In this document: piece by piece, positions 2,986 through 36,508 of the stretch
Position numbering within the stretch: position 1 is the first letter of the stretch
Layout of the letters: each line of letters begins with the position of its first letter
DNA from: a virus
Lineage: Duplodnaviria; Heunggongvirae; Uroviricota; Caudoviricetes
Length of the DNA stretch: 37,772 nucleotides
IMG/VR virus record: IMGVR_UViG_2563366960_000009
Location: 1 to 37,772 of that record
Reading direction: 5' to 3' (one strand)
The notes under the pieces: model-generated
What the model was told of the DNA's origin: nothing
Databases searched by the model: none
Seen by the model: the letters and a program-made list of their open reading frames with translations, nothing else
Made by a program: the position numbers and the translations under genes

Positions 2986-3187
2986 GCATATTTATCTCAT
3001 GGCTTGTTCTGATTATTTCGGTGACCAGTGCCATTGGAATTATGCGAATTATTCATTCAGTGAAAAAGATTGAGCGTTTTTTCTCTGACGAATAACAGCA
3101 CAAGTAAAACACCGGATTAAATAAGAAAACCTGAAAATTATCCGCACTCGCGGAGGTATTCGTACATCCAAATAACGGAGAAAGAAA

Positions 3188-3556: not shown

Positions 3557-3567
3557 CGGGCGATGCA

Positions 3568-4638: not shown

Positions 4639-4649
4639 AGGACCGCGAC

Positions 4650-4853
4650 ATGAACAAAAAGACCTGGTTTCGCGCATACATGTGGGCGCTGGTATGCGTC
4701 CTCGTCTCTCTCATTCTGTATGCAGGACTACTCCCCCGAATGATTTCATCAGACAGCTCCTTCCTGGTATTGCTGGGAATTTTCATTGCCATGCTGTACC
4801 CGGCAGGCGTTGTTCGCCTTTTCAGTAAGTACATCAAGGAAATCAAACAATGA
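4650..4853 (+). CDS. Small two-helix membrane protein, partner of the SPFH lipoprotein
   Basis: 67 aa with two hydrophobic helices (WALVCVLVSLILYAGLL and FLVLLGIFIAMLYPAGVV); stop overlaps the ATG of the next gene (ATGA). Confidence 0.55.
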   Translation: MNKKTWFRAYMWALVCVLVSLILYAGLLPRMISSDSSFLVLLGIFIAMLYPAGVVRLFSKYIKEIKQ

Positions 4854-5680: not shown

Positions 5681-5842
5681 TGACACCCGGCCAGTGCAAA
5701 CCGCTGGCCGGAGCAGTATCAGGATTTTTTAGTATGCCGTTCTCACAAAAAAACCGCTTGCCATGCCGCAATCAGTCAGGTTACATTTTCGCTGCACCTC
5801 ATAAAACGGGTGCCGGGTTTCGCAGCCTGCTGACTACAAGAG

Positions 5843-5874
5843 CGCACAACCGCGCCAGCGGTTTTTTTGTGCGT
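5843..5874 (+). terminator. Putative intrinsic terminator (GC stem followed by a 7-T run) inside a 370-bp non-coding region
   Basis: gcgcacaaccgcgccagcggtttttttgtgcg: stem aaccgc/gcggtt then TTTTTTT. Confidence 0.35.
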
Positions 5875-6047
5875 ACTGTATTGCCACGTTTTTTTCGCGT
5901 CAGAATTATGGCGGGGCGTACGGGGCCGACTTCGGTCGGGCCGGGATCTCTTGTAGCCGGTACTGCGAACCTCGTACGTCTCGCCACCCACAGTTTCGCA
6001 GCTCTGGATGGTGAGTTTTCACAACTTACTACAAGAGGCCACATATC

Positions 6048-6278
6048 ATGGCAAACAGCAAACAGCACCGCGCTATCGCGGAGCGTCGCCACATCCAGAC
6101 TGAAATCGACCGCAGACTCACCCGCGCTGCACACATCGCCTTTATCATGCAATCCAACGCATTGCACAGGCTCAACAGTACTATTTCAGCCGACTACTGC
6201 GCCGCTGTATTCAGCTATCTGGCGGAAGACCTCCTGTCTCTTCAGGATCTCATCCAGCAGCAAAACAAACTCCATTAA
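6048..6278 (+). CDS. Hypothetical protein upstream of the replication gene
   Basis: 76-aa ORF with ATG start. Confidence 0.4.
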   Translation: MANSKQHRAIAERRHIQTEIDRRLTRAAHIAFIMQSNALHRLNSTISADYCAAVFSYLAEDLLSLQDLIQQQNKLH

Positions 6279-6350
6279 TTCCTGTTCCGGGCCTTTCCTG
6301 CACCTTGCGGCGGGAGGCCTTCGCACATCTGTAACAAGAGGATTGCCGCA

Positions 6351-6716
6351 ATGATTCTCGCCAACGACTTTCTTGAATACCTGCTCAACACAGAGCGTGA
6401 TCTTGCCGCTCGCGTACGTGATCGTTATGACATGTATCTGAAATCCCTGCCTGTACCGCAGCTCGCTGACGGAAAAATTGTTATTGATGGTCGCTACATG
6501 ATTGACAGCCACGAGGGGAATTACAGGCTTTACCGCATTGAAGCCGGCACCCCGTCCGTTATTGGCATTTACCAGCGCCCATCCTCTGCGATCGTCGATG
6601 TGATTGCCGACAGCATCCGCATCACACACCACCATGCCGACACAGAAGACACTGTGCTGGAGATTCAGCGGCTGGCTGCCGTTTGCCGTGACACTCTGAA
6701 CGGAATGACGAAGTAA
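6351..6716 (+). CDS. Hypothetical protein immediately upstream of A (position of P2 B / 186 CP8x genes)
   Basis: 121-aa ORF ending 7 bp before the A start. Confidence 0.5.
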   Translation: MILANDFLEYLLNTERDLAARVRDRYDMYLKSLPVPQLADGKIVIDGRYMIDSHEGNYRLYRIEAGTPSVIGIYQRPSSAIVDVIADSIRITHHHADTEDTVLEIQRLAAVCRDTLNGMTK

Positions 6717-6722
6717 ATCAGT

Positions 6723-15548: not shown

Positions 15549-15702
15549 TGCTCCCCCTGAGTAATTACAGGAAGATTACCCGCGCGCGAAACTGTTCTCC
15601 TTAACCCCCTGTTCTGGCCGTTTTCTTACAACAAAAGCCCTTTGTATCAGCCTGTTACGCTTTGCCATCATGACTGAAGAACCAGTCAGAGGGGCAAAAA
15701 CT
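15549..15702. promoter_or_regulatory. Divergent late-promoter region between P and O (expected Ogr-dependent promoters)
   Basis: Position by analogy with P2. I could not find a clean TGT-N12-ACA dyad by eye. Confidence 0.35.
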
Positions 15703-20980: not shown

Positions 20981-21608
20981 GGCATTCACCCGCGTGGATG
21001 AAACCTTTGAGGCCATCCGCGACAGCCTGAATCAGCAGGCCATCAATAACATCGCCAGAAAGCTGGCACAGGATTTACGCCGCGCCCAGCAGGCGCGCAT
21101 CCGGTCACAGAAAGCGCCGGACGGGACCGCATGGACACCACGCAGACGCCGCGTAACCCGGATACAGGAGCGCATTCGCTTTATCTGGAATAACGAAGCA
21201 CGCACGCTGAAAAACTGGCATCACGACACGGGGAAATACGGGCGAACCATCACCGGGTGGGATGAGGATAAAAACACCATCCGCACGTTTTACCGGGATG
21301 ACATCGACCGCTTTCTGGAAATACGCACCCGGCGCATCAACCAGGACAGCACAAAGCGCGTCCCCATGTTCGTAAAACTGCGCACCGCCCGCTACCTGAA
21401 AGCCCGTGCAGATGCTTCCGGTGTGACGGTGGGTTACAGCGGCGTGGCCGCACGTATTGCACGCGTTCATCAGTTCGGTGAGCGCGATCAGGTTGCGCCG
21501 GGCATTTTCACCGATTACCCGGTACGTGAGCTGCTGGGCATCAGTCAGGCAGATGAACGCCTGATTTATAACACGGTGCTGGGCCGGATTGCGGAGGCTG
21601 TACGGTGA
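20973..21608 (+). CDS. Virion morphogenesis / tail completion protein (P2 gpS-like)
   Basis: ARKLAQDLRRAQQARIRSQKAPDGTAWTPRRRR resembles P2 gpS; ATG at 20973 overlaps the R stop (alternative GTG at 20964). Confidence 0.75.
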   Translation: MDKAFTRVDETFEAIRDSLNQQAINNIARKLAQDLRRAQQARIRSQKAPDGTAWTPRRRRVTRIQERIRFIWNNEARTLKNWHHDTGKYGRTITGWDEDKNTIRTFYRDDIDRFLEIRTRRINQDSTKRVPMFVKLRTARYLKARADASGVTVGYSGVAARIARVHQFGERDQVAPGIFTDYPVRELLGISQADERLIYNTVLGRIAEAVR

Positions 21609-22186
21609 GCGCAGAACTCATGCGACTGCTGAGCAACATCATCCGCACCGGGATCATCTCTGAAGTTGATGAGAAGTCCTGGCGCGTGCGCGTTCGCAGC
21701 GGCGAACTGGAAACAGGCTGGCTGCGCTGGAACACCACGCGCGCGGGAGCCTTCAATGTGTGGCTGCCGCCATCACCCGGCGAACAGGTGGTAATTGCCT
21801 GCATTGGCGGCAACCCGGAAACCGCCATGATAATTGGCAGCCTGTGGAGTGATGCCAGTCCGGCCCCCGGCAAAAGCCTGAAAGAAATCGTGGTCAGCGC
21901 GCCGGATGGCGCGGTGTTCCGCTACGACGCGGACGCTGGCGCACTGAGCGCCAGCGGCATGAAAACAGCCACCCTGCAGGCATCCGTCAGCGTGACACTG
22001 GATACGCCCGTCGTGGAATGCACAGACCTTCTGAGAACAGCGACGCTTGACGTCACAAAAGGGGGAAAGATGAGCGGCAATATCACGCACAGCGGCGGCG
22101 ATTTCACCTCAAACGGCATCACAGTGCATACGCATAAGCACGGTGGCGTTAAAGGTGGCAGCGATTCGACAGGAGGCCCGCAGTGA
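21605..22186 (+). CDS. Baseplate spike / assembly protein (P2 gpV-like)
   Basis: LLSNIIRTGII...TLDTPVVECT...KGGKMSGNITHSGG...HTHKH aligns with recalled P2 gpV. Confidence 0.85.
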   Translation: MSAELMRLLSNIIRTGIISEVDEKSWRVRVRSGELETGWLRWNTTRAGAFNVWLPPSPGEQVVIACIGGNPETAMIIGSLWSDASPAPGKSLKEIVVSAPDGAVFRYDADAGALSASGMKTATLQASVSVTLDTPVVECTDLLRTATLDVTKGGKMSGNITHSGGDFTSNGITVHTHKHGGVKGGSDSTGGPQ

Positions 22187-23433: not shown

Positions 23434-23953
23434 TTCACTGTTACCGCCATCAGCCAGCAATTTCATGCGTTGTGCCGAAGCTGTCGGAACGCGCATTACA
23501 GACATTCCGGTAGACCTCAACACGCTGTGGTCGCCGGACACCTGCCCGGTGCATCTGCTGCCTTATCTCGCCTGGGCATTTTCCGTTGACCGCTGGGATC
23601 GCAACTGGCCGGAAGAGACAAAGCGACAGGTGATTCGTGATGCATGGCTGATACACCGACACAAGGGAACCATCAGCGCACTGCGCCGGGCCATTGAGCC
23701 GCTGGGATACCTCATTCGTGTGTCTGAGTGGTGGGAGTTCGGCGGAGAACCTGGAACATTCAAGGTTGATGTTGGCACGCTGGACAGTGGTGTGACCGAG
23801 GAAATGTATCTGGAAATGGAACGGCTGATTGCCGACGCCAAACCCGCAAGTCGCCACCTTATCGGCCTGAACATTATCCAGGACATTCCTGGCTATCTGT
23901 ATACAGGCGGTGTGGTCTGTGATGGTGATGTTATTACTGTTTATCCCGGATAA
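23426..23953 (+). CDS. Baseplate / tail protein (P2 gpI-like)
   Basis: ATG at 23426 overlaps the J stop; about 175 aa like P2 I. Confidence 0.75.
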   Translation: MSNSLLPPSASNFMRCAEAVGTRITDIPVDLNTLWSPDTCPVHLLPYLAWAFSVDRWDRNWPEETKRQVIRDAWLIHRHKGTISALRRAIEPLGYLIRVSEWWEFGGEPGTFKVDVGTLDSGVTEEMYLEMERLIADAKPASRHLIGLNIIQDIPGYLYTGGVVCDGDVITVYPG

Positions 23954-23963
23954 GTGAGAAACA

Positions 23964-26744
23964 ATGAGCACGAAATTTAAAACCGTTATCACTACTGCCG
24001 GAGCCGCAAAGCTGGCAGCTGCCACTGTCCCCGGCGGGAAAAAAGTAACCCTGTCTGCAATGGCCGTGGGTGACGGTAATGGCAAATTGCCGGTGCCGGA
24101 TGCCGGTCAGACGAAACTGGTGCATGAGGTCTGGCGTCACGCTCTGAATAAAGTCAGCGTGGATAATAAGAATAAAAACTATATCGTGGCTGAACTGGTT
24201 GTACCGCCCGAAGTGGGCGGCTTCTGGATGCGTGAGCTTGGTCTGTATGACGATGCCGGAACACTGATTGCGGTCGCCAACATGGCGGAAAGCTATAAGC
24301 CTGAACTGGCTGAAGGCTCCGGGCGTGCGCAGACCTGCCGCATGGTTATTATTGTCAGTAACGTGGCGTCCGTTGAGCTGAGTATTGATGCCAGCGCAGT
24401 GATGGCGACGCAGGATTACGTCGATGACAAAATCGCAGAACATGAGCAGTCCCGCCGCCATCCTGACGCCACGCTGACAGAAAAAGGTTTTACTCAGTTA
24501 AGCAGTGCAACAAACAGCACCAGTGAAAAGCTGGCGGCAACGCCAAAAGCGGTCAAGGCAGCAAATGACAACGCAAATTCACGTCTGGCGAAAAATCAGA
24601 ACGGTGCAGATATCCAGGATAAATCAGCTTTTCTGGACAATATTAGTGTTACCAGCCTGACGTTTATGAAAAACAACGGCGAAATGCCGGTTGATGCTGA
24701 TCTGAATACATTTGGTCCTGTTAAGGCTTATTCAGGTATCTGGTCTAAAGCAACGTCCACCAACGCAACACTGGAGAAAAATTTCCCGGAAGATAATGCT
24801 GTCGGTGTGCTTGAGGTTTTTGCTGGCGGCAATTTTGCAGGCACGCAACGCTATACCACACGTGACGGAAATTTGTATATCCGCAAACTCATTGGAACAT
24901 GGAATGGTAATGATGGACCATGGGGAGCATGGCGCCATGTTCAGGCTGTAACGCGTGCTCTAAGTACGACCATTGACCTTAACTCTCTCGGTGGCGCAGA
25001 ACATTTAGGTCTATGGAGAAACAGCAGTTCAGCAATAGCTTCTTTTGAACGACATTACCCCGAGCAGGGAAGAGACGCGCAGGGCATTCTGGAAATTTTC
25101 GAAGGTGGGCTATATGGACGCACACAGCGTTATACAACCCGTAACGGGACTATGTATATTCGCGGCCTGACAGCCAAATGGGATGCAGAAAATCCACAGT
25201 GGGAAGACTGGATCCAAATTGGTTATCAGACCAGTAGTACCTTCTATGAGGATGACCTGGATGATTTGATGTCTCCGGGTATTTACAGTGTGACAGGCAA
25301 AGCGACCCACACCCCAATCCAGGGGCAGTCTGGTTTTCTGGAAGTCATCAGGCGCAAGGATGGTGTCTATGTTTTGCAACGTTACACGACCACAGGAACC
25401 AGCGCAGCTACAAAAGACCGTTTATATGAGCGAGTGTTTCTTGGTGGCTCATTTAACGCGTGGGGGGAGTGGCGACAGATTTATAACTCAAACTCTTTGC
25501 CGTTAGAGTTGGGTATCGGTGGCGCAGTGGCAAAACTCACCAGCCTGGACTGGCAGACATACGATTTTGTGCCGGGCAGTCTGATAACCGTTCGGCTGGA
25601 TAACATGACCAACATTCCCGACGGTATGGACTGGGGCGTCATTGATGGCAACCTGATAAACATCGCAGTTGGTCCGAGTGATGATTCCGGTACGGGACGC
25701 TCAATGCATGTATGGCGCAGCACTGTAAGTAAGGCCAACTACCGCTTTTTTATGGTGCGTATTTCAGGAAATCCCGGAAGCCGCACGATTACAGCAAGAC
25801 GAGTACCAATCATTGACGAAGCCCAGACATGGGGCGCGAAACAGACATTCAGTGCTGGCCTTTCTGGTGAACTGTCCGGCAATGCGGCGACAGCAACAAA
25901 GCTGAAAACAGCCCGTAAAATTAATAACGTTTTGTTTGATGGAACATCAGATATTAACCTGACGCCGAAAAATATTGGTGCATTGCCAATAACGGGAGGA
26001 ACTCTTACTGGCGGTTTAACGGCTGATGGCGAGATTATTTCCAAATCGGCGAATGGTCTGCGTATTGCCTATGGCAACTATGGATTCTTTATCCGAAACG
26101 ATGGTTCAAACACATACTTCATGTTGACCAATTCGGGAGACAGCCTGGGAACATGGAGTAGTTTAAGGCCGTTTGCCATTAATAACGCCAATGGCGATGT
26201 TTCTATCGGTAATGGACTCAATGTTACTGGTGATATAGGAACCAATGCTTGGGTATATGCAAATCGTTTGGCAATTAATAGCAGTAGCGGCATGTGGATA
26301 AATATGCGTGACCAGAATGTTATTTTCGGACGTAATGCGGTATCCACCGATGGTGCTCAGGCATTGTTACGTCAGGACCATGCTGATCGCAAATTTATGA
26401 TTGGTGGTCTGGGGAATAAGCAATTTGGCATCTACATGATTAATAATTCAAGGACAGAAAATGGCACCGATGGTCAGGCGTACATGGATAATAACGGGAA
26501 TTGGCTTTGCGGTGCGCAAGTTATTCCCGGCAATTATGGTAATTTTGACTCACGCTATGTGAGAGATGTCAGACTTGGCACACGTGTTGTTCAGACCATG
26601 CAAAGAGGCGTGATGTATGAGAAATCAGGCCATGTAATTACTGGGCTTGGCATTGTCGGCGAAGTTGATGGCGACGATCCGGCAGTATTCAGACCAATAC
26701 AAAAGTTAATTAACGGAACGTGGTACAACGTGTCACAGGTGTAA
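23964..26744 (+). CDS. Tail fibre protein (P2 gpH-like) with three tandem internal repeats and a divergent distal region
   Basis: N-terminus MSTKFKTVITTAGAAKLAAA... is the conserved P2 H baseplate-attachment region. 926 aa is longer than P2 H (about 670 aa). Confidence 0.85.
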   Translation: MSTKFKTVITTAGAAKLAAATVPGGKKVTLSAMAVGDGNGKLPVPDAGQTKLVHEVWRHALNKVSVDNKNKNYIVAELVVPPEVGGFWMRELGLYDDAGTLIAVANMAESYKPELAEGSGRAQTCRMVIIVSNVASVELSIDASAVMATQDYVDDKIAEHEQSRRHPDATLTEKGFTQLSSATNSTSEKLAATPKAVKAANDNANSRLAKNQNGADIQDKSAFLDNISVTSLTFMKNNGEMPVDADLNTFGPVKAYSGIWSKATSTNATLEKNFPEDNAVGVLEVFAGGNFAGTQRYTTRDGNLYIRKLIGTWNGNDGPWGAWRHVQAVTRALSTTIDLNSLGGAEHLGLWRNSSSAIASFERHYPEQGRDAQGILEIFEGGLYGRTQRYTTRNGTMYIRGLTAKWDAENPQWEDWIQIGYQTSSTFYEDDLDDLMSPGIYSVTGKATHTPIQGQSGFLEVIRRKDGVYVLQRYTTTGTSAATKDRLYERVFLGGSFNAWGEWRQIYNSNSLPLELGIGGAVAKLTSLDWQTYDFVPGSLITVRLDNMTNIPDGMDWGVIDGNLINIAVGPSDDSGTGRSMHVWRSTVSKANYRFFMVRISGNPGSRTITARRVPIIDEAQTWGAKQTFSAGLSGELSGNAATATKLKTARKINNVLFDGTSDINLTPKNIGALPITGGTLTGGLTADGEIISKSANGLRIAYGNYGFFIRNDGSNTYFMLTNSGDSLGTWSSLRPFAINNANGDVSIGNGLNVTGDIGTNAWVYANRLAINSSSGMWINMRDQNVIFGRNAVSTDGAQALLRQDHADRKFMIGGLGNKQFGIYMINNSRTENGTDGQAYMDNNGNWLCGAQVIPGNYGNFDSRYVRDVRLGTRVVQTMQRGVMYEKSGHVITGLGIVGEVDGDDPAVFRPIQKLINGTWYNVSQV

Positions 26745-26747
26745 TTT

Positions 26748-27275
26748 ATGCAGCATTTAAAAAACATTGTCGCCGGCAATCCAAAAACCGTTGAGCAATA
26801 TCAGCTAACAAAAAATTTTAATGTTGCCTGGCTGTGGTCAGAAGACGGAAAAAACTGGTATGAGGAAGTGAAGAACTTTCAGCCGGACACAATAAAAATT
26901 CTTTACGACGAGAACAATATTATTGTGGCCGTAACCAGAGACGCTTCAACACTGGACCCTACAGGCTACAGCGTTGTCGAAGTTCCCGATATCACCGCCA
27001 ATCGTCGCGCCGACGATTCAGGAAAGTGGCTGTTTAAGGACGGAGCTGTGGTTAAACGGATTTATACGGCAGACGAGCAGCAACAGCAGGCCGAATTACA
27101 AAAGGCCGCATTGCTTTCCGAAGCTGAATCAGTCATCCAGCAGCTGGAACGCGCTGTCAGGCTGAATATGGCGACGGATGAGGAGCGCACACGACTGGAA
27201 GCCTGGGAACGCTACAGCGTTCTGGTCAGCCGTGTGGATACAGCAAAGCCCGAATGGCCACAAAAGCCTGAGTAA
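26748..27275 (+). CDS. Tail fibre assembly chaperone (P2 gpG-like)
   Basis: 175 aa, same length as P2 G; immediately downstream of H. Confidence 0.8.
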
Positions 27276-27490
27276 AAATTAAGCTCCGATATCGGGCCTT
27301 CTCTCATTCTGGTTGTTCGGGAAACGTTACTGGCAGGCCGGAGGTGTCTGTGGATTCGACTTTCTACGCGTAGAGCATCCATTCGGTTAATTTTTGTTTA
27401 TTCTCGTCGGAAATGATGCCCAGCCGTAGCTGTGAGCCCCATAGGCGATATACAGACTGAAGAAACAACCAGGCAGATCCAGGAAAAAGA

Positions 27491-27522
27491 AAACCGCTAA
27501 TCTGAACATTAGCGGTTTTTTG
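27491..27522. terminator. Bidirectional intrinsic terminator between G (+) and U (-)
   Basis: aaccgctaat-ctgaac-attagcggtt with TTTTT on the plus side and a T-rich tract on the minus side. Confidence 0.6.
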
Positions 27523-27529
27523 CGTTAAT

Positions 27530-28024
27530 TCAGAACAGCCCTTTAACTGAACTGGTTGCGCTGTTAAGAGATGATGTCACCTTATCTTTGAAGCCGGACA
27601 GCATATCGCTGAACGATGAGGATTGCAGGCGCTCCCGCAAATCCTCATCACAGCGTTCAAGGGTCAGTGAAAATTCTATCTTTTTCGCCTTACCGTAGCG
27701 ATCAAACTCGGAACGGGTCGTATTCGTTTCGGTCAGAACATACATGCCGTAAATCTGCCCGACGCCATCAATAAGAGGCCAGGGGCGTCCTGTATACGCC
27801 TGCGTGGTCAGCAGCGACAGCGACACTTCACCACCTGTAATTTCAGGATAAAGCACACCAGAAAGAACAATACGATCATCGCCTGCCCCGATATACTGCC
27901 AGCTTGCTGAACGGTTAACGCGTTCATTTTTCACATGTCGCCAGCTTTTATTTTGCTGTAACTGCTGATGCGGCAATGTGCGCAGCTCAAAAACAAACAT
28001 GCCGTAGATCATCATCATGGCCAT
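27530..28024 (-). CDS. Tail protein (P2 gpU-like)
   Basis: NKSWRHVKNERVNRSASWQYIGAGDD...GVLYPEITGG resembles recalled P2 gpU. Confidence 0.85.
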   Translation of the reverse strand: MAMMMIYGMFVFELRTLPHQQLQQNKSWRHVKNERVNRSASWQYIGAGDDRIVLSGVLYPEITGGEVSLSLLTTQAYTGRPWPLIDGVGQIYGMYVLTETNTTRSEFDRYGKAKKIEFSLTLERCDEDLRERLQSSSFSDMLSGFKDKVTSSLNSATSSVKGLF

Positions 28025-28030
28025 GACTCC

Positions 28031-30874
28031 TCAATCTTTATCGTAAAAACTGCCACGTCCGGCACGGGCGCGCCGTTCCACCTCTGCCCTGACCATTTCA
28101 CCGACCAGTTTCGCCAGTTCGCGGGGATTCTGCGTAACAACGTTATGCAGATGAACATGAATTTCACCACCAAATCCGGAGGCAACAGGCTCCCGGTTAC
28201 GGGAAGTTACAGGAACTGATGCCACTGGCGATCGTATGGCCTCCGCCACCGGGCGGGAGCTGGCCGCAACAACAGGGACCAGCGCCGGAGGCAGCGGAGC
28301 CGGGACCACGGGTGTGATATTAATTGCGGGGGCAGGCTTACTGACATGCGCAATCTTCCGCTCCTGCCACTCCCCACGAACAGCAAGTGCGCGGGGCAGG
28401 TTCTTAAAGACAATATCGCCGGGGCCAATGCGTTTTTTCGTCTCATCAACCAGCTTACCTGTGTTATCAGCAATTTTGCTGAGTCTGCGTAGCGTCCCGG
28501 TATTGCTGTCTGTGAGCGGTTTGTTGTCTTTGGGTTTATCACCTCCGGTGCCATTGCCATTTTCCACAGGCTTCGGCGGATTGATTTTCGCCAGGTCCCC
28601 CTGAAGCAAGGCAACCTTGTCCTGAAGAATGGCCGCACGCTGTGCGTCTTCGATTTTCTTTCTCGCCCTTTCCGCTTCATCCGGAAGCACACCGAGTTTT
28701 TCAAGTATCCACGCCAGCGTATCCAGCAACATTTTTGCAGGTGTCAGAACAAGCTGTAACGCGCCGCCAAGAACGTTACCGAATATCTCGCCAGCACTGG
28801 TACATTTATCCAGCGTTTCCTTGCTGGACTCCATCGGTGACAACAGCGATTTAAACCAGTTAAACACCTGACTGATCCCGCTTCCGATTGCGTCAAAAAC
28901 AGGACCAAACCGTTCAAAGGTTTCGCGCAACGGGGTCAGCCTTTCCATAATCCCGCTGAACACCCCGGCAAAAAATGCCCTGATGGGATCCCAGTATTTC
29001 CAGATGAGAACCGCCGCAGCCACAAACGCAGCAGCAATCAATCCGACCGGACTGAACAACGCCCCGATAGCGCCCCCCAGTAACGAAACGGAACCCGTCA
29101 CCATTCCCCATAGTGCTGGCAGAACCCTGACAGCATTCATTGATCCGGTCAGGAGGGAAAAACCAAGACGCAGTTTTGCCAGCGGGCCAGCAAGCACACC
29201 AATAGCCAGCGACAACGAGCCAACCGTTGCAGTCATTGCCAGCAGTGCACCGCCTGCTATCAGTAGCTGGCGCGTCAGTACCGGATGGGCCTGCGCCAGC
29301 GCCGTCACCTTTGATACCACACGCGTGAGCCACTGCGTGACAGAACGCAGCGGACCGTCAATCAGATCTGCAATGCGGATGCGCAACCCTTCCCATGCAC
29401 TGCTGAGTGATTTCAGATCGCCGTCAAGGTTGTTGGCCATAACCTTTGCCGTGCGTTCAGCCTCACCGCGCGCGCCTTCAAGTTCTTTTCTCAGTTTGGG
29501 TAAGGAGCCGTCACCTGCCGCATCAACGAGGGCCATAAATGATGTGAAAGCCTCTTCTCCGGCAATGTCCTTAAAGAACGATACCCGGTCAACTTCCCCG
29601 TATTTGCGGGTAGCTTTATAAAGGTCAGCCAGCACATCCTCCATCGGGCGCATTTTGCCCCCGGCATCCGAGACAGACACGCCAAGCTCTTTCAGCGCCT
29701 CTGCTGCCGCCTTTGGCGGTGATGCCAGACGAGCCAGGCTGGCACGCATTGCCGTACCAGCATCACTCCCCCTGATACCCATATTCGCCAGCACGCCCGC
29801 CATCGCTGCGGCCTGCTCCAGCGATATTCCCAGCTTACCCGCCACCGGACCTGCATATTTCATGGTTTCACCCAGTGCGCGAAGGTCAGTGTTGGTACGG
29901 GTAAACGCTGCGGTGAGTGTGTCGCCGACCCGGTCCATCTGGTCAGCAGAAAGACCGAACTGCGTCAGAATATTTGAGCCAATATCCGCCGTCTCACCGA
30001 GGTCCATACCGCCAGCCGTTGCCATGCTCAGTACGCCAGGGAGCGCAGCCTGAATGGCCTGTGGTGTAAAGCCAGCCATTGCAAGAAATGCCTGCCCACT
30101 GGCGGCATCGCCTGCGGTGAACTGCGTTTCAGAGCCCAGTTTTAACGCCTGCTCACGCAGCGCCTTAAACTGCGGGCTGTTTTTGTCGATTCGCGTCAGT
30201 GCCTGAACGCGGGACATCTCTTTCCCGAACCCGATCGCAGGCTGCAAAAAACGCCCGGCAGCATAGCCGCCCGCCGCTGCCGCACCAATTGCCAGCGCAC
30301 CACCTGTTTTCAGTTTTCCCGCTGTTTCCTGCGCGCGCGAATACCGCTCACGCGCCCGCGTTACACGCGCAAGCGCCTGCCGTTCGCGTTCAAGCTGGTT
30401 GTTGTACTGTTCGGTGCGTCTGATGGCCTGCTGGATGGTGTTATCGCTGCCTGTCAGGGAAATGCCGTGGCGTTTCAGCTCTCCGCCAAGCTCCCGCATT
30501 TTCTGAATTTCCCGTGTGCGCGATTCATTCAGGCGTTCAAGCCGGGTGCTTAACTGCTGCATCAGCTTTTGTTGTTTTTCGCTGAGCACTGTACCCGTGC
30601 GTTGTAACTGATTAAGGGCGTTAAGCTGGCGTCGTGCTTTCACGATACCCGCATCCGCTTTACTGACAGCGTCGCGGGCGCGCTCAAATGAACGCGCCTG
30701 ACGCTCGAGATTTTTGATCGCCCCCTGCGTTCGCTGGATGGAGTCACCAAACTGCCCCATCAGGCGGCGGGCGTTTTCGGCAGGCCGGGTCAGCCTGTCA
30801 ACGGCGCTGAAAGCGACCCGGATGTCAAGAGTCTTCATTGTCTGCATTCCCGCTGCGAAGTGCCGCCCGCTCAC
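28031..30874 (-). CDS. Tail tape-measure protein (P2 gpT-like)
   Basis: 947 aa, coiled-coil N-terminal part and Gly/Ala-rich hydrophobic middle; between E/E' and U. Start uncertain (GTG 30874, ATG at 30847 or 30838). Confidence 0.85.
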   Translation of the reverse strand: MSGRHFAAGMQTMKTLDIRVAFSAVDRLTRPAENARRLMGQFGDSIQRTQGAIKNLERQARSFERARDAVSKADAGIVKARRQLNALNQLQRTGTVLSEKQQKLMQQLSTRLERLNESRTREIQKMRELGGELKRHGISLTGSDNTIQQAIRRTEQYNNQLERERQALARVTRARERYSRAQETAGKLKTGGALAIGAAAAGGYAAGRFLQPAIGFGKEMSRVQALTRIDKNSPQFKALREQALKLGSETQFTAGDAASGQAFLAMAGFTPQAIQAALPGVLSMATAGGMDLGETADIGSNILTQFGLSADQMDRVGDTLTAAFTRTNTDLRALGETMKYAGPVAGKLGISLEQAAAMAGVLANMGIRGSDAGTAMRASLARLASPPKAAAEALKELGVSVSDAGGKMRPMEDVLADLYKATRKYGEVDRVSFFKDIAGEEAFTSFMALVDAAGDGSLPKLRKELEGARGEAERTAKVMANNLDGDLKSLSSAWEGLRIRIADLIDGPLRSVTQWLTRVVSKVTALAQAHPVLTRQLLIAGGALLAMTATVGSLSLAIGVLAGPLAKLRLGFSLLTGSMNAVRVLPALWGMVTGSVSLLGGAIGALFSPVGLIAAAFVAAAVLIWKYWDPIRAFFAGVFSGIMERLTPLRETFERFGPVFDAIGSGISQVFNWFKSLLSPMESSKETLDKCTSAGEIFGNVLGGALQLVLTPAKMLLDTLAWILEKLGVLPDEAERARKKIEDAQRAAILQDKVALLQGDLAKINPPKPVENGNGTGGDKPKDNKPLTDSNTGTLRRLSKIADNTGKLVDETKKRIGPGDIVFKNLPRALAVRGEWQERKIAHVSKPAPAINITPVVPAPLPPALVPVVAASSRPVAEAIRSPVASVPVTSRNREPVASGFGGEIHVHLHNVVTQNPRELAKLVGEMVRAEVERRARAGRGSFYDKD

Positions 30875-31363
30875 GCCAGCTAACCACTTCGCCGGGCGTC
30901 ATCATGAAGATTTCGGCGGGCGACCAGTTAAAAATGGCGGCAATATCCGCCACCAGATCTTCGATGTGCTCAAAGCACACCAGGGTGATTACGCTGCCGT
31001 CTCCTGCACGCTCTTCGCGCCAGAGTCTGGCTCGCTCATAAAATTTACAGCCACAGCGCACAACTGAATAAAATCGCGTGACGACATTTTTTTAATCATC
31101 ACTTCATCCAGTCGTGGCGAAGTCACGCGAGGCAACAGCGTGAACATGGTATCCGCTTTCAGATTCAGCACATCAGACAGCGACAGACCACGCAGGGATC
31201 CCGCCTGCTCAATAGCCCCGGTGATCTCCACATACGTGATTTTTTCGCCACCACGCTCAATTGGTCGGGTCAGTTTTACGCCACGTTCGACAGCCATATC
31301 CTCACCTGCCGTCACATCATCCGCCACGGTGTTATTCCGGGTTTCAGTATCGATGTCTTTCAT
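30825..31363 (-). CDS. Predicted E+E' fusion made by programmed -1 frameshifting at an A7 slippery run (plus-strand T7 at 31087..31093)
   Basis: The -1 frame is open from the A7 run to a stop at 30825 and overlaps the tape-measure start, matching the conserved chaperone frameshift known from P2 E/E' and lambda G/GT. Confidence 0.55.
30989..31363 (-). CDS. Tail assembly chaperone (P2 gpE-like)
   Basis: ATG at 31363 with AAGGAG site; lies between the tube gene and the tape-measure gene. Confidence 0.7.
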   Translation of the reverse strand: MKDIDTETRNNTVADDVTAGEDMAVERGVKLTRPIERGGEKITYVEITGAIEQAGSLRGLSLSDVLNLKADTMFTLLPRVTSPRLDEVMIKKMSSRDFIQLCAVAVNFMSEPDSGAKSVQETAA

Positions 31364-31418
31364 CAGTTGTCTCCTTTTCAGTCAGAGGCGACGCACTGCG
31401 CCGCCTGCATATTACTTA

Positions 31419-31931
31419 TCAGCCAAGCCCAAGCGCGGAACGGATACGGTCAGGCACAATGTCCTTGCCGTCCTTCCGGTAGATGTGGTTCAACAGGTCG
31501 ATTTCCCACAGCGGGCGATCGTTAACGCTCAGCTTGTAGTAGGTGTTTTTGACAGCGTAAGTGTGTGATGTGGCTTCGCCCTGTTTGGCTTCCCCCATAT
31601 CAATTTCCGTCACACGTCCGCGCATCTCGATTTCATACAGATCGCTTTCTGCATCGGTGTAGTATTCACCCGCAAAACGCAGCAGCGTGCCGTCAATCGT
31701 GCCGCCATATTTAAGGAACAGCGCACGAACAGCTCCCCCCATAACAAAACTCGCATCAAGCGCGGAGTCGTCCAGACCGAGATCAATACTTACCGCCCCC
31801 ATCATGCCACCACCACGATAGCTGTCGGTTTTGCGCGTCAGTTTGGGCGGCGTGACGGATGTCACTTTACCCACTTCGTTTTCACCATCCACAAACAACG
31901 TAAAAAAGCGAAGATGTTTTGGTACAGCCAT
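31419..31931 (-). CDS. Tail tube protein (P2 gpFII-like)
   Basis: KLTRKTDSYRGGGMMGAVSIDLGLDD resembles P2 FII (KLTRKLENYRGAGMNGSAPVDLGLDD, recalled). Confidence 0.85.
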   Translation of the reverse strand: MAVPKHLRFFTLFVDGENEVGKVTSVTPPKLTRKTDSYRGGGMMGAVSIDLGLDDSALDASFVMGGAVRALFLKYGGTIDGTLLRFAGEYYTDAESDLYEIEMRGRVTEIDMGEAKQGEATSHTYAVKNTYYKLSVNDRPLWEIDLLNHIYRKDGKDIVPDRIRSALGLG

Positions 31932-33115
31932 CAGGCACCTCCCAGCACCGCAAATGCGGGACCAAAGAATTCATCAGTAAACGTCTGGTAAAGCTCCATG
32001 TCTTCCAGTGGCGGAACGGGCGTATATTTGTAGCGAATACGCACACGTCCCTGACGTAAATTCGTGGTGCCGTTATCCACCACGTCATACCAGCACTCCG
32101 CACCAATCAGTTTCCCGGCAGTAACCAGCGAATCCAGTTTTGCCCTGATGGCACTGATAACATCCTTCACGTTCGCAGGCGTCAGTGGACTGTCGATGGT
32201 TTCAAACTGCGCTTCCGCAATTGAATCAGCCAGCACCTGTGCGGTTCGGGTATACACCTCAAAGATGTAGGCGTTCGTTTCCGGTGTGCGGTTGCCCCAG
32301 AAGCGGAACCCGTTGCGACGAATAATGGTCGTGATTTCTTTGTTATTGAGGCTGTTGGCATCACTGTCTTCGGCCTGCAACGACCAGAACACATGCCTGG
32401 ACATTCCCAGCACATTTTTAACCGGAACGTTGGACAGCGATTTGTGCCAGCCCTGCTCATGGTCAATGTACGCACGAAGGCCGCACGCATAAGCAGGCGC
32501 GGGGAACGTTTCGTTTTTGCCACTTTTCGGGTTGTAGGCGATGAAGTCAGGCCATAAGAGCATCACCTCACGTTCGTTGAATTTCTGGCGGTAGGTAATC
32601 GCCTCAGCCATCGTGTTACAACCATGACATGTGGCATACACAAACGCGCGCAGTTTACCCGCAATCACGCACAGGGATTTTGTCACCGCCTCCGTGTCCA
32701 GCTCCGGCGCGGCCAGAATACGCGGACGGTATCCGATGCTTTCATCCTGCTCTGCAACAAGCAGCGCATACATCCCCGTATAGCTGCCGTCAGATTCAGA
32801 ACCACCGATAACCAGTTGATCCTGCGTCTTTCCGTTTTCTTCTTTGTGTTCAGCCACGCGAACGACGATCACCTTTGTGCTCACCTGGTCTGCGATGGCC
32901 TTAAGCGCACGATAAAGCGTCCCCGTTGTTCCGCATTTTCCCAGCACGTCATTGACGCGGGTCAGCAGTGTGGGCTTGTTCAGCGGGAACAGCTCCGCAT
33001 CCGCATCATCCGCCGTTGCCACGATACCGATAACACTGGAATCAACATCATTAATCGCCGTTACCAGGTCGGTACTTTCCGTAACACGGGCACCATGAAA
33101 ACGAGTTTCACTCAT
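31931..33115 (-). CDS. Contractile tail sheath protein (P2 gpFI-like)
   Basis: 394 aa; ETFPLNKP, KLRAF, WPDF, EQGWHK, GFRFWGNRT and YTPVPPLE motifs match recalled P2 FI. Confidence 0.9.
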   Translation of the reverse strand: MSETRFHGARVTESTDLVTAINDVDSSVIGIVATADDADAELFPLNKPTLLTRVNDVLGKCGTTGTLYRALKAIADQVSTKVIVVRVAEHKEENGKTQDQLVIGGSESDGSYTGMYALLVAEQDESIGYRPRILAAPELDTEAVTKSLCVIAGKLRAFVYATCHGCNTMAEAITYRQKFNEREVMLLWPDFIAYNPKSGKNETFPAPAYACGLRAYIDHEQGWHKSLSNVPVKNVLGMSRHVFWSLQAEDSDANSLNNKEITTIIRRNGFRFWGNRTPETNAYIFEVYTRTAQVLADSIAEAQFETIDSPLTPANVKDVISAIRAKLDSLVTAGKLIGAECWYDVVDNGTTNLRQGRVRIRYKYTPVPPLEDMELYQTFTDEFFGPAFAVLGGA

Positions 33116-33272
33116 AGCTTCAGCCCCTTGTATCCGTTAAATGATTCGGCAACAATCATCACCCACCACGCGCGTAATCTCACCCCTGCGCCGTTCTCCC
33201 GACCCGGCGACAACAAAAAGCAGTAACCCCCTCCGCACGCACATGCGACCATGCCGCACAGGGAGGGAACAG

Positions 33273-34382
33273 ATGACCGATACCACCATGCAATTGCTCA
33301 GTCAGGGCACAGACCCCGTGAAAATGCCGGATTTTGATATTCTCGCGGAGGGTAAAACGCTGTCAGGCGTGGCAGAGCGCCTGATGAGCCTGTCACTGAC
33401 CGACAACCGGGGATTTGACGCGGACCAGCTCACCATCACGCTGGATGATGCGGATGGTCAGTTGCAGCTACCGCCACGGGGCGCGCGCCTGACGGTTCTC
33501 ATTGGCTGGAAAGGAGAACCGCTGACAGAAAAAGGCACTTACATTGTTGATGAAATCGCTCACGAAGGACCGCCGGACAGGCTGACTGTTTCAGCCAGAA
33601 GCGCAGATTTTCGGGATGAATTTAACGTTAAACGTGAGGTGTCCTGGCATGATGTGACCGTTGAGCGTGTGGTATCCGCCATCGCTCATCGGTATGGTCT
33701 GAAACCGCAAATCAGCGAAATGCTGATTGATATCGAAATCGACCACGCCGACCAGACCGAAGAAAGCGACATATCCTTCCTTACGCGCATGGCGGAAATG
33801 CTGGGCGCAATCACCACGGTAAAAAGCGGCAATCTGTTATTCATCATGCCAGGTGGTGGCGTGAACGCACAGGGCCAGCCGTTGCCCTCATTCGCCATTA
33901 CACGCAGCAGCGGCGATCGCCATCAGTTCCGCATTGCTGACCGCGAGGCGTATACGGGGGTACGCGCCTACTGGCTTGATCTTAATTACGGGAAAAAGAA
34001 AAAAGTCAGCGTGAAACGCCGTAAACCGCCAAAACCCAAAAAGGAGAAAAGCAGCAGCCGTGAAGGTGATTATATGGAAGGCGCGGAAGGCAATGTGTTT
34101 GTGTTACGCAAGACTTATCAGAACGAGCAGGCAGCAAGACGCGCAGCGGCGGCAAAGTGGCAGCAACTACAACGCGGAGCCGCATCATTCTCCATCACGC
34201 TGGCGCGTGGACGTGCAGAACTCTACCCCGAAATGCATGGCACGGTAACAGGATTTAAAAGCGAGATTGATAATCAGGACTGGATCATTGCAAAAGCCGA
34301 GCACACCATTGATAATAGCGGCTTTACCACGCAGCTTGAGCTTGAGGCAAAAATCCCGGAATGGATAGCGGAAACAGAGTGA
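33273..34382 (+). CDS. Tail protein D-like (late gene D)
   Basis: ATG at 33273 with GGGAGG site (the longer track ORF from 33141 is Pro/Arg-rich and lacks a site); about 370 aa; followed by ogr as in P2. Confidence 0.8.
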   Translation: MTDTTMQLLSQGTDPVKMPDFDILAEGKTLSGVAERLMSLSLTDNRGFDADQLTITLDDADGQLQLPPRGARLTVLIGWKGEPLTEKGTYIVDEIAHEGPPDRLTVSARSADFRDEFNVKREVSWHDVTVERVVSAIAHRYGLKPQISEMLIDIEIDHADQTEESDISFLTRMAEMLGAITTVKSGNLLFIMPGGGVNAQGQPLPSFAITRSSGDRHQFRIADREAYTGVRAYWLDLNYGKKKKVSVKRRKPPKPKKEKSSSREGDYMEGAEGNVFVLRKTYQNEQAARRAAAAKWQQLQRGAASFSITLARGRAELYPEMHGTVTGFKSEIDNQDWIIAKAEHTIDNSGFTTQLELEAKIPEWIAETE

Positions 34383-34422
34383 GCAACTTAGAATAGGCAG
34401 CACCACGTTAAGGGAGGTCGCT

Positions 34423-34683
34423 ATGTTCCGTTGTCCGCTTTGTGGCGCATCTGCCCGTATCCGCACCAGTCGTCCGGAAAATGATTCAAACACCGTGCGG
34501 CAAAAGTATTACCAGTGTAACAATCTGGAATGCGGCGTATGCTTCTCAACACTGGAAGCTTTCCATAAATTCACATCAAAACACGCCTCCGGCGTTCACT
34601 CTTCAGAAGGTATCCCGTGGCATGATCTGCCAGCTTCACACAGGGGAAACAATCAGATGAGTTTGCCTTTATCTCAGAATTAA
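34423..34683 (+). CDS. ogr: Ogr/Delta-type zinc-finger late-gene transcriptional activator
   Basis: MFRCPLCGASARIRTSR...YYQCNNLECGVCFSTLE resembles P2 Ogr (MFHCPLC...HQCQNVNCSATF, recalled); CxxC...CxxC zinc finger. Confidence 0.85.
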   Translation: MFRCPLCGASARIRTSRPENDSNTVRQKYYQCNNLECGVCFSTLEAFHKFTSKHASGVHSSEGIPWHDLPASHRGNNQMSLPLSQN

Positions 34684-34771
34684 CAGGCAGAATTGCCGGA
34701 GTAACAAAAAAGCGATAGATTACGTGCGGGTGCCTTTCGGCTGATGGTCGGAGGGAATACCCGAAGGCCAG

Positions 34772-34957
34772 ATGTGGAAAGGCCCCGAGTCAACTTTAAC
34801 GTTAACCCGAGGCCCTAACCATCTACCCTTAGCAAGTGATAGGTTAGCGCCTCCCCGAAAAAGGAGCAAGCGCTATGTCGCAAAAATCGCTTACGGCCAT
34901 CACATTCTGCGTGACGGCAATCCTCATCATCTGGATGCTGCACGGTTCGCTGTGTGA
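34772..34957 (+). CDS. Possible mok-like overlapping reading frame of a hok-type locus
   Basis: 61-aa ORF starting about 100 bp upstream of the hok-like ATG and overlapping it in a different frame, as in hok/mok/sok loci. The protein itself has no recognisable features. Confidence 0.3.
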   Translation: MWKGPESTLTLTRGPNHLPLASDRLAPPRKRSKRYVAKIAYGHHILRDGNPHHLDAARFAV

Positions 34958-35015
34958 AATACGGATGAGCTTCTGGGGAGCGGAGTTTGCGGCGTTCTTA
35001 CAGTGTAAGCAGTAA
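34875..35015 (+). CDS. Hok/Gef-family type I toxin peptide
   Basis: 46 aa, below the ORF-track cutoff: MSQKSLTAITFCVTAILIIWMLHGSLCEIRMSFWGAEFAAFLQCKQ. N-terminal TM helix and the SLCEIR...AAF signature shared with Hok; AAGGAG site upstream. Confidence 0.6.
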   Translation: MSQKSLTAITFCVTAILIIWMLHGSLCEIRMSFWGAEFAAFLQCKQ

Positions 35016-35024
35016 GGAAACCGC

Positions 35025-35046
35025 GACGGGGGAGTAATCCCCCGTC
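35025..35046 (+). terminator. Perfect 9-bp stem-loop (gacggggga-gtaa-tcccccgtc) just after the hok-like stop
   Basis: Read directly; could be the 3' structural element of a hok mRNA or a terminator, though no U-tract follows. Confidence 0.4.
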
Positions 35047-35277
35047 AATCGGTTGCTAGGGTAAGGTCGATAAGGCACCCTATCTCACAGCTCTAAATGC
35101 AAAAATTCCATGAAACTGTGGGATTTTTGCATCACATACTGATACAGACCAGCCCTTCTATATGCCTCACTCTATACCAGCTAATCAATTGACACTTATC
35201 AATAAAAATAAATCTGATAAAATCAAAATGTTTTGTAACAAATATCAACTCGTATTAATCCAAAGGAGGCGGATTAC

Positions 35278-35610
35278 ATGGCATTAATCAAATGTCCTGA
35301 ATGCCAGAAAGAGGTGAGCGATTCAGCATTGTATTGCCCTGCTTGTGGTAAACAACTGCAAAAACTTAAGCGTTCATTTTTTGGACGGATCATTAAGTGG
35401 GTTTTTATATTATTTAATATTTTTATGATCTATACGCTTTTAGTTGGACTAGGAGGCACTAGTGAAATAATAAATAATGCCACATCCGATGCCGAAAAAG
35501 CCGGTGCAGTTATTGGTACAGGCTTAGGTTTAATTACCATTGGAAGCTTATGGGTTATTGGCGATATCATTATCGGAATTTTAGTATTTCTTACTAAACC
35601 AAAGGGATAA
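35278..35610 (+). CDS. Zinc-ribbon membrane protein (N-terminal CxxC-x10-CxxC, two transmembrane helices)
   Basis: 110 aa; CPECQKEVSDSALYCPACG then two long hydrophobic helices; AAGGAGG site; markedly AT-rich codon usage. Confidence 0.7.
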   Translation: MALIKCPECQKEVSDSALYCPACGKQLQKLKRSFFGRIIKWVFILFNIFMIYTLLVGLGGTSEIINNATSDAEKAGAVIGTGLGLITIGSLWVIGDIIIGILVFLTKPKG

Positions 35611-35614
35611 TAAA

Positions 35615-36508
35615 ATGAAAAATATAATTTTTTCTATAGGTGCATCATTTATATCAATTAGTGTACTGCCTGTTCACGCAGCAACTGAACATAAGAACTT
35701 CAATGCAGTACTCCAGTGCCGAGCAATAGAAAATAATAAAGACAGACTTTCTTGTTACGATAAGTCAATACAACCGACTCGAACGAAAGTTGCTGAAAAA
35801 TTCGAAAGCAGAGATCAATGCCCTGATGAGAAAGATGATGATAGACGTTTATCTTGTTATGATCGTTTCTTTTCTCCAACATTTACTCCATCTGTAAACT
35901 CAAAATCTAAAACGGAAAAGCCAGTAACAACAGAGGCTCAGCAACCAAATCTTTCTGAGATATCTAAATGTCGTGCAGAAAATGATAAAGAAGCCAGACT
36001 AAACTGCTACGATAAACTATTCCCACAGGATAAAATCGCTCAAGCTGAATCAAAATTAGAGAAAGCCACAGATGTAGGAAAATGGCACACATCCATTACT
36101 ACATCGCCAATTGATGATTCGAAAAATGTAATTTTATCGTTAGAAAGTGATGATTATATCAGAACTCCATTTGGAGAAGCGGTTACTCCTACTCTTTTTA
36201 TAGCTTGCCGAGAAAAGAAAACCGAAGTATTTCTTAGTTGGGATGTATATTTAGGCCTTGAACAAACCAGCATGCTTTATCGCCTTGATAAACAGAAAGC
36301 AGTTGAGCGAAACTGGCTAGTATCTACAGATACAAAGGCTGTTTTTTATAAAGGTAATGACATTGATTTCATCCGAAAACTAGCCAACTCAAGCAAAATG
36401 TATACAAAAATAACGCCTTATAATGAGAGCCCCGTAAGTGCAACTTTCAATTTAAACGGCCTGTCAAACGCGCTAAAACCGCTTCAAGCTGCTTGTAACT
36501 GGAAATAG
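35615..36508 (+). CDS. Secreted protein with three Cys-pair repeats and an uncharacterised C-terminal domain
   Basis: 297 aa; signal peptide ending VHA; repeats CRAIENNKDRLSCYDK, CPDEKDDDRRLSCYDR, CRAENDKEARLNCYDK; AT-rich; 4 bp downstream of the zinc-ribbon gene. Confidence 0.7.
   Translation: MKNIIFSIGASFISISVLPVHAATEHKNFNAVLQCRAIENNKDRLSCYDKSIQPTRTKVAEKFESRDQCPDEKDDDRRLSCYDRFFSPTFTPSVNSKSKTEKPVTTEAQQPNLSEISKCRAENDKEARLNCYDKLFPQDKIAQAESKLEKATDVGKWHTSITTSPIDDSKNVILSLESDDYIRTPFGEAVTPTLFIACREKKTEVFLSWDVYLGLEQTSMLYRLDKQKAVERNWLVSTDTKAVFYKGNDIDFIRKLANSSKMYTKITPYNESPVSATFNLNGLSNALKPLQAACNWK

Follow-up and report, generated by a model that had tools for sequence, protein, structure and literature searches.

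The window, by which we mean the whole 37,772-nucleotide stretch of DNA that was analysed, comes from a P2-like prophage of E. coli in which the tail genes FI-FII-E/E'-T-U (27530-33115) lie on the minus strand, flanked by G and by D and ogr on the plus strand. This layout is the normal one for the P88-type clade of the Peduoviridae, Xuanwuvirus and its neighbouring genera, and it is neither an assembly artefact nor a recent event. The original prediction offered a choice between an artefact and a genuine inversion that created a divergent promoter. The inversion stands as an old, clade-wide character, and not as anything peculiar to the window. We consider the account as a whole likely to be correct, namely that the layout is the clade norm, that it goes back to an ancestral inversion that became fixed, that FI-U is a separate late operon, and that one Ogr dyad serves both divergent promoters.

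Layout of the tail module

The genes in and around the inverted block were called as ORFs and identified with PHROGs and Pfam (Table 1). The contractile-tail module is P2-like (Peduoviridae), with FI, FII, E/E', T, U, D, and an Ogr/Delta activator, and its proteins are 33-49% identical to those of P2 by tblastn. The product of G is 87% identical in amino acid sequence to P2 G. Written with strands, the order is I+ H+ G+, U- T- E- FII- FI-, D+ ogr+, as in the P88-type clade. G closes the rightward O...V...H-G late transcription unit, while FI is the opening gene and U the final gene of the leftward F operon. E and E' are a tail chaperone pair, and their frames, which are offset by -1, are predicted to be linked by a -1 frameshift. 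The ORF layout bears out the original prediction that FI through U are encoded on the minus strand, with G on one side and D on the other, and that FI and D diverge from a 157-bp gap (33116-33272). The start of D is an ATG which, together with its Shine-Dalgarno sequence, is aligned in 32 relatives.

Table 1. Features of the inverted tail block and its surroundings, in window coordinates.
Feature	Position	Strand	Basis or remark
H	23964-26744	+	ORF
G, tail-fibre assembly protein	26748-27275	+	ORF; phrog_136; Caudo_TAP
Scar of deleted invertible tail-fibre segment	27276-27479		alignment to P88
3' end of alternative assembly gene G'	27304-27444	-	alignment to P88
Bidirectional intrinsic terminator	27490-27519	both	12-14 bp hairpin and U-runs
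U, tail (tube initiator) protein	27530-28024	-	Phage_P2_GpU, 133 bits; phrog_76
T, tape measure protein	28031-30874	-	phrog_28; PGAP start 30838
E' extension frame	30825-30980	-	Phage_P2_GpE
E	30989-31363	-	weak Phage_TAC_7 match
FII, tail tube	31419-31931	-	Phage_tube, 154.9 bits
FI, tail sheath	31931-33115	-	sheath domains (Pfam); phrog_23
Predicted leftward FI -10, GATGAT	33155-33160	-	predicted start near 33148
Candidate activator site, Ogr-type dyad TCT-N12-ACA	33195-33212		centre 33203.5
Predicted rightward D extended -10, TG-C-GACCAT	33244-33252	+	predicted start near 33259
D, baseplate hub protein	33273-34382	+	Phage_GPD; phrog_52
ogr, late-gene activator (Ogr/Delta zinc finger)	34423-34683	+	Ogr_Delta, 52.4 bits (cut-off 26.3)

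The F operon of P2 (FI-FII-E-E'-T-U-D, with the promoter pF) and that of Fels-2 match the window in tail gene content and internal order, down to the E/E' frameshift pair, although the proteins of the window are only 33-53% identical to theirs. These phages likewise have an Ogr-type activator, and their activator site lies about 55 bp upstream of where FI transcription starts, as does the candidate site of the window relative to its predicted start. However, the operon in P2 and Fels-2 is co-directional with G and includes D, whereas in the window FI-U runs the other way and D-ogr forms a divergent unit by itself. In P2 the stop codon of U overlaps the ATG of D, while in the window FI and D diverge. 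A canonical P2 F operon is a single transcription unit running in the direction of H-G, in which translation of U and D is coupled; with FI-U on the minus strand, D on the plus strand and a 157-bp divergent gap, the window does not contain one.

Distribution of the inverted layout

The co-directional order that had been expected from P2, 186 and their relatives is indeed found in P2 and Fels-2, but it does not hold for the P88-type clade, to which the prophage in the window belongs. The window is 94% identical in nucleotide sequence to P88 across 97% of positions 26000-35000, with the same strands. P88, P884B11, phiSM, PhiR44_2 and others match over 26-35 kb of the window at 93-97% nucleotide identity in one co-linear place, and the annotation of P88 and its relatives gives the same strands as in the window. 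The gene order and strands of P88 and the other Xuanwuvirus phages (P884B11, Citrobacter phage phiSM and PhiR44_2) are identical to those of the window, and these relatives have the same 157-bp FI-D gap and the same terminator hairpin. Isolates from three ICTV genera have the inverted layout, namely Reipivirus ST16-OXA48phi5.4, Novemvirus phiT5282H and, in Xuanwuvirus, P88. P88 can be induced and is lytic, while phiSM shows spontaneous activity (PMC6456863).

By its own terms the original prediction would be refuted if close relatives routinely showed this orientation, and they do. Besides the isolated phages, the orientation FI- D+ is shared by 46 of 46 prophage loci, these being the GTDB species-representative loci that contain both genes, and by 80 of 80 IMG/VR loci. 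The 46 prophage loci come from more than 20 genera of Enterobacterales. The D proteins of the 46 loci are 65-98% identical to that of the window. The co-linear order is retained by P2, Fels-2 and a distant Roseospira locus, whose D proteins are 49%, 53% and 32% identical to window D, respectively.

Predicted promoter elements in the FI-D gap

The original prediction proposed a search for Ogr sites of the form TGT-N12-ACA in the divergent region. The FI-D gap lacks the strict motif, of which the whole window has six matches, compared with nine expected by chance. With one mismatch, the search does find a site, the dyad TCT-N12-ACA. Its extended form is GTTCT-N12-ACACAAAA-like, i.e. GTTCT-N12-ACAACAAAA at 33193-33218; the latter has two matches in the window, one in the FI-D gap and one in the P-O gap, versus 0.01 expected, and nearly all relatives have the extended motif in the corresponding position. 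We note that the informative motif is the clade's own variant, rather than the strict TGT-N12-ACA. The Ogr protein of the window, which is encoded next to D, is only 36% identical to that of P2; this low identity and the non-canonical TCT half-site count against control by Ogr. No sigma-70-type promoter was found in the FI-D gap.

Thirty-two distinct FI-D gaps of relatives were used as a footprint sample. In the right half of the dyad, ACAAC is nearly invariant (29/32; ACAAT in locus L008), and the left half is TGT in about half of the relatives, TCT, or, in three relatives, CCT. The predicted FI -10 element has A2, A5 and T6 invariant in all 32 and lies 43 nt from the dyad centre in every one of them. 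The predicted D -10 element has A2 and T6 invariant and is preceded by an invariant TG (32/32); it lies 43 nt from the dyad centre in 30 relatives and 44 nt from it in 2. These 43-nt spacers are fixed despite variable spacer sequence and variable leader length. With their constant distance from the dyad and no sigma-70 consensus promoter in the gap, the predicted -10 elements fit the pattern of an Ogr-dependent P2-type late promoter. An alternating CG tract at 33234-33247 is also strongly conserved, beyond what a spacer needs.

The predicted start sites of the window are 111 nt apart. The same geometry is annotated in P2: divergent starts at 3016 and 3127, also 111 nt apart, flank one 'activator binding site; pO, pP promoters' in the record. 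In both cases a single site is midway, as annotated in P2 and as predicted here. P2 uses this common-site divergent architecture for the P/O pair only, whereas the window has a predicted second copy for FI and D, and the dyad of its FI-D gap recurs in its P-O gap. By comparison with P2 pF, the dyad-to-(-10) spacing is 43 nt in the window and 45 nt in P2, and the P2 pF dyad reads TGT-N12-CCA.

Proposed transcription of FI-U and D-ogr

In our model, the FI-U block would be its own late operon, transcribed leftward from the FI-D gap and ending at a bidirectional terminator that it has in common with the convergent H-G unit. Rightward transcription from the FI-D gap would cover D and ogr as a second, short unit. 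The dyad, midway between the two predicted -10 elements and centred about 55 bp upstream of each predicted start, would allow Ogr bound at this single site to switch on both promoters. From the sequence and the analogy with P2 pP/pO, we infer that one Ogr site drives FI through U leftward and D-ogr rightward; the start sites and the dependence on Ogr are predictions.

It is also conceivable, though unlikely, that the two divergent promoters work independently within a layout that is still the clade norm, with FI expressed from the Ogr site and D-ogr expressed otherwise. The rightward -10, GACCAT, is weak and, with its invariant TG, could be an activator-independent extended -10 promoter; alternatively, another factor might recognise the conserved CGCGCGCG tract. 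Both the TG ahead of this -10 and the conservation of the CG tract are consistent with independence, as are the sigma-70 promoter that P2 ogr has of its own and the orientation of the good half-site, which fits P2 pF on the FI side only. However, an independent promoter would not require the rightward -10 to stay at a fixed 43 nt from the dyad centre, as it does in nearly all relatives, and the geometry matches P2 pP/pO, a pair annotated with one common site. Furthermore, constitutive expression of D-ogr would tend to activate late genes in the lysogen.

A broader proposal can be made, for which we see about an even chance. All late transcription in the P88-type clade may come from two bidirectional single-dyad Ogr units, P/O and FI/D, the separate pV promoter having been lost, since S and V abut. 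The inversion would have given D-ogr direct Ogr control on a short transcript, with tight positive feedback on ogr, and the CG tract might couple the two promoters through supercoiling.

The G-U junction

The bidirectional terminator that had been predicted after U is present, and we place it at 27490-27519. Its hairpin has UUUUUUGCGUU when the plus strand is read and UUUUCUUUUU when the minus strand is read, with dG of -16.6 and -15.8 kcal/mol and z of about -2.8. It is common to the convergent G and U transcription units. The same hairpin is found in P88, PhiR44_2 and locus L005. An intrinsic terminator was detected downstream of U in 15 of 40 relatives by a crude hairpin-plus-T-run scan, which is too simple to prove absence in the others.

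P88, P884B11 and phiSM carry an invertible tail-fibre segment of about 2 kb and a DNA invertase gene between G and U, both of which the window has lost. In the alignment, window 26204-27444 corresponds to positions 2993-4233 of the P88 sequence (L001) and window 27480-28100 to 6227-6847; because these flanking alignments skip P88 4234-6226, that stretch, with the N-terminal part of G', H' and the invertase, is the one deleted. Window 27445-27479 has no counterpart in P88. PGAP annotates a partial pseudogene at 27364-27447. The G-U gap of PhiR44_2 is 254 bp, the same as in the window.

Origin of the inversion

How did this layout arise? The uniform inverted order among relatives points to an inversion that is old and became fixed in a single clade, and because the co-linear order persists outside the clade, in P2, Fels-2 and the Roseospira locus, the inverted order is best read as the derived state, evolution having probably gone from co-linear to inverted. 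In the ancestor of the clade, a segment with the F promoter and FI-FII-E/E'-T-U would have flipped and then stayed fixed. One breakpoint would have been upstream of the activator site of the F promoter, and the other between U and D, two genes whose ends overlap in P2. Acquisition of the block in reverse from another phage is less parsimonious: D is as far from P2 (49%) as FI is (45%), and this similar divergence suggests that the whole FI-D module comes from one lineage.

A recent, strain-specific or reversible inversion, either a flip by a Gin/Cin-type invertase or a programmed on/off switch of tail genes, is very improbable. It has to be considered since the invertase gene of P88 directly adjoins the left junction and the co-linear Fels-2 has an invertase directly upstream of FI, positions which indicate that the left breakpoint abuts an invertase gene. 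The crossover site of Gin/Cin-type invertase systems is at the 5' end of the invertase gene. The breakpoint here, however, is at the 3' end. Moreover, the window lacks an invertase, D is preceded by a conserved Shine-Dalgarno sequence and predicted promoter of its own, and the other orientation is absent from all the clade loci examined, both GTDB and IMG/VR. This uniformity rules out a current reversible switch. The gix/hix-type crossover core AAACCNNGGTTT, searched as the central pattern with one mismatch allowed, gave no match, so crossover sites lend no support to an invertase-mediated origin. The original prediction reported no clear inverted repeats at the junctions, and our search of 23900-34700 agrees, giving none that link the two junctions and only short chance pairs of 71-93% complementarity. 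Known invertible tail-fibre segments, those of Mu (G), P1 (C) and Fels-2 (Gin/Cin/Pin), do have a counterpart beside the left junction in relatives, of which the window keeps the G' fragment. The FI-U block is unlike these segments, with no flanking inverted repeats, no crossover sites found and a single orientation in relatives, and with the invertase deleted it does not qualify as a site-specific invertible segment of the Gin/Cin/Hin type.

The suggestion that the block was mis-oriented when the genome was assembled, which draws only on the departure from the P2 map and the lack of inverted repeats at the junctions, has practically no chance of being right and is excluded by the comparative data: a 1.6-kb stretch across the left junction is 100% identical to the complete chromosome of E. 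coli BCE049, 14 complete E. coli genomes have the same junction, independently sequenced isolates such as P88 and phiSM and every related locus examined have the same order, and the conserved promoter elements and D start suit the present orientation.

Implications

Annotated public genomes of working phages have shown the layout ever since P88, and it marks the whole clade. That it is known rests on deposited annotations, because the literature searched, including PMC5285337, PMC6456863 and PMC3091744, nowhere explicitly describes the inversion or the FI/D promoter. The layout is a useful correction to the textbook map of the P2 tail genes, which is not valid throughout the Peduoviridae. Tail gene order is described as conserved across the family in a recent preprint (10.64898/2026.09.14.750843). 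Annotation and synteny pipelines should not count the inverted orientation as an error. As for the promoters, the dyad symmetry of the activator site apparently let the inversion make a second bidirectional late promoter with the geometry of P2 pP/pO. If so, the FI/D design would be a simple example of an operon rearrangement that reuses an existing regulatory site.

Results

The original prediction was that the FI–U block (sheath FI, tube FII, the chaperone pair E/E', tape measure T, and U) is inverted, either genuinely, with a divergent promoter region, or through an assembly artefact. The ORF map and family searches agree with the gene and strand description given there, and the sign of the GC skew flips along with the coding strand over the block. 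The 157-bp divergent gap between FI and D was likewise confirmed by the ORF map, and the D start is aligned with an ATG and a Shine-Dalgarno sequence in 32 relatives. The hairpin found after U, as expected, has U-runs on both strands, making it a bidirectional terminator of the two convergent units, G and U. No inverted repeats joining the two junctions of the block were found, also as originally reported.

Features of the late region in the window
Feature	Positions	Strand	Basis or sequence
H	23964-26744	+	ORF map, family searches
G	26748-27275	+	ORF map, family searches
Terminator hairpin	27490-27519	both	U-runs on each strand
U	27530-28024	-	ORF map, family searches
T	28031-30874	-	ORF map, family searches
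E/E'	30825-31363	-	ORF map, family searches
FII	31419-31931	-	ORF map, family searches
FI	31931-33115	-	ORF map, family searches
Predicted leftward -10	33155-33160	-	GATGAT; A2, A5, T6 invariant
Dyad	33195-33212		TCT-N12-ACA
Alternating CG tract	rightward spacer		conserved block
Predicted rightward extended -10	33244-33252	+	TG-C-GACCAT; TG, A2, T6 invariant
D	33273-34382	+	ORF map, family searches
ogr	34423-34683	+	Ogr_Delta, 52.4 bits

For D in E. coli BCE049 (NZ_CP042250, 3465840-3466640), RefSeq/PGAP gives a truncated 266-aa protein starting at window position 33582, accompanied by a small pseudogene. The ORF is intact over its full 369 aa, with 98% identity to P88 D, and the truncation looks like an annotation error, not a lesion. 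Between ogr and the host gene flk lies low-GC cargo (34875-36508, GC about 0.37) with a Hok/Gef toxin gene, a zinc-ribbon protein, and what PGAP names a 'type VI secretion system-associated TagO'.

The complete BCE049 chromosome is 100% identical to window 26600-28200, a 1.6-kb stretch spanning the left junction, and this junction is common to 14 complete E. coli genomes. With window 26000-35000 as the Megablast query against phage records, Escherichia phage P88, Xuanwuvirus P884B11, Citrobacter phage phiSM, PhiR44_2, 520873, and 500465-2 each matched in one co-linear piece (93-97% identity), and their deposited annotation has the same strands. The FI/D divergent junction is also present, at 67-72% nucleotide identity, in Novemvirus phiT5282H, Reipivirus ST16-OXA48phi5.4, and many Klebsiella phages. 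A D-protein scan of one genome per GTDB species yielded 48 loci, and FI is on the minus strand and D on the plus strand in all 46 having both genes, as in 80 of the 80 IMG/VR loci retrieved. The GTDB loci, whose D proteins are 65-98% identical to that of the window, come from more than 20 host genera, including Salmonella, Serratia, Erwinia, Pantoea, Klebsiella, Pectobacterium, Brenneria, and Edwardsiella. Two related loci, L005 (Vagococcus sp. WN89Y, with the whole tail block) and L046 (Planococcaceae bacterium UBA3378), are on Firmicutes contigs with D 97-99% identical to the prophage's, which is likely due to enterobacterial DNA contamination.

A stretch of 1993 bp in P88 (locus 4234-6226) is absent from the window. 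It holds a Mu-G/P1-C-like invertible tail-fibre segment (H', an alternative fibre end, and most of G', an alternative assembly gene) and a DNA invertase. Within 27276-27479, G' survives only as its 3' end (27304-27444, minus strand), where PGAP calls a partial pseudogene; 35 unmatched bases follow, and then the terminator. PhiR44_2 has the same 254-bp G–U gap, and it shares the deletion state with 14 complete E. coli genomes. With the segment and invertase lost, the tail fibre is fixed in a single form. The loss has no connection with the inversion of the FI–U block. All of G and the N-terminal part of H have 87-88% protein identity to P2, and FI, FII, T, U, and D only 33-49%. In its distal part, H is similar to the S fibre of Mu/P1/D108 (80-84% nucleotide identity). 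Window 23964-27275 is a clear tail-fibre mosaic.

Alignment of 32 distinct FI–D gaps showed four conserved blocks. The search for an Ogr site did find a dyad, but it reads TCT-N12-ACA rather than the strict TGT-N12-ACA. Its right half is ACAAC in 29 of the 32 gaps and ACAAT in the related locus L008, and the left half, twelve bases leftward, is TGT, TCT, or, in three relatives, CCT. The distance from dyad centre to -10 is 43 nt in every gap leftward and in 30/32 rightward, although the spacer sequences vary and so do the leader lengths (32-40 and 18-22 nt). Start sites are thereby predicted at about 33148 and 33259, each 55.5 bp from the dyad centre and 111 nt from one another. No sigma-70 consensus promoter was found in the gap. 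The extended motif GTTCT-N12-ACAACAAAA occurs exactly twice in the window (0.01 expected by chance), once in the FI–D gap and once in the P–O gap, and at the same place in almost all relatives.

The conserved tract in the predicted D promoter spacer (33234-33247) is 14 nt of strictly alternating pyrimidine-purine (CGCACGCACATGCG; CGCGCGCGCATG in relatives), with a similar CGCGCGCG at 15581-15588, next to the -10 predicted for the P promoter. The tract may serve as a promoter element or may be sensitive to supercoiling.

Discussion

An assembly artefact is ruled out by the 100% match of the 1.6-kb stretch over the left junction to the BCE049 chromosome and by the same strands in phage records and related loci. 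The original interpretation is partly right, in that the inversion of the FI–U block is real, though old, and comes with a divergent late promoter region; the orientation is found throughout the P88-type clade (Xuanwuvirus and neighbouring Peduoviridae genera). It is not unusual for this phage group; the relatives are routinely so oriented, which counts against the original prediction by its own standard. P88 is inducible and lytic on E. coli strains, and phiSM shows spontaneous activity (PMC6456863), showing that the inverted layout is functional. The order is co-linear in P2 (D 49% identical), Fels-2 (53%), and a Roseospira prophage (32%), and U and D adjoin on one strand in Burkholderia KS5 (PMC3091744). 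Thus, the inverted order, uniform within the clade, is derived, and it is fixed in one Enterobacterales-infecting clade. According to a recent preprint on the structure of P2 (10.64898/2026.09.14.750843), the order of the tail genes is conserved throughout Peduoviridae. Among the papers covered by literature searches, none was found to describe the inversion or the FI/D promoter pair. The inverted layout is already known, being plain in annotated public records, and the predicted shared-site promoter would be a small addition.

The simplest history would be inversion of the segment from pF and FI through U, with breaks upstream of the activator site and between U and D. The U stop and D start of P2 overlap (ATAATG), and its F promoter and activator site are directly upstream of FI. 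Fels-2 has a DNA invertase gene immediately upstream of the F promoter; in P88 the 3' end of U comes straight after this same gene. The better half-site is promoter-distal in both P2 pF (GTTGT-N12-CCAAC) and the leftward promoter of the window (GTTGT-N12-AGAAC), which fits an activator site that travelled with FI.

The P2 GenBank record has a single 'activator binding site; pO, pP promoters' between divergent starts 3016 and 3127, also 111 nt apart, and in P2 pF the -10 element is 45 nt from the dyad centre, compared with 43 nt in the window. From the conserved dyad, the fixed spacing, the match to P2 pP/pO, the motif pair, and the lack of a sigma-70 promoter, we infer that one dyad in the FI–D gap, bound by Ogr, would activate both the FI→U operon leftward and the D–ogr unit rightward, as at P2 pP/pO.

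In the P–O divergent gap (15549-15702), the same dyad is at 15611-15636, with -10-like hexamers 43-44 nt to each side. As in the P88 annotation, O probably begins at 15703 (MANEKK...) and not at 15670, where the ORF has its first ATG. Between the S stop at 21608 and the V start at 21620 there is no space for a V promoter of its own, and no dyad with up to one mismatch was found near S–V (21600-21625); S and V overlap in P88. A single late transcript of roughly 12 kb may run from O through G, in which case two activator sites would be all that the phage has for its four late units.
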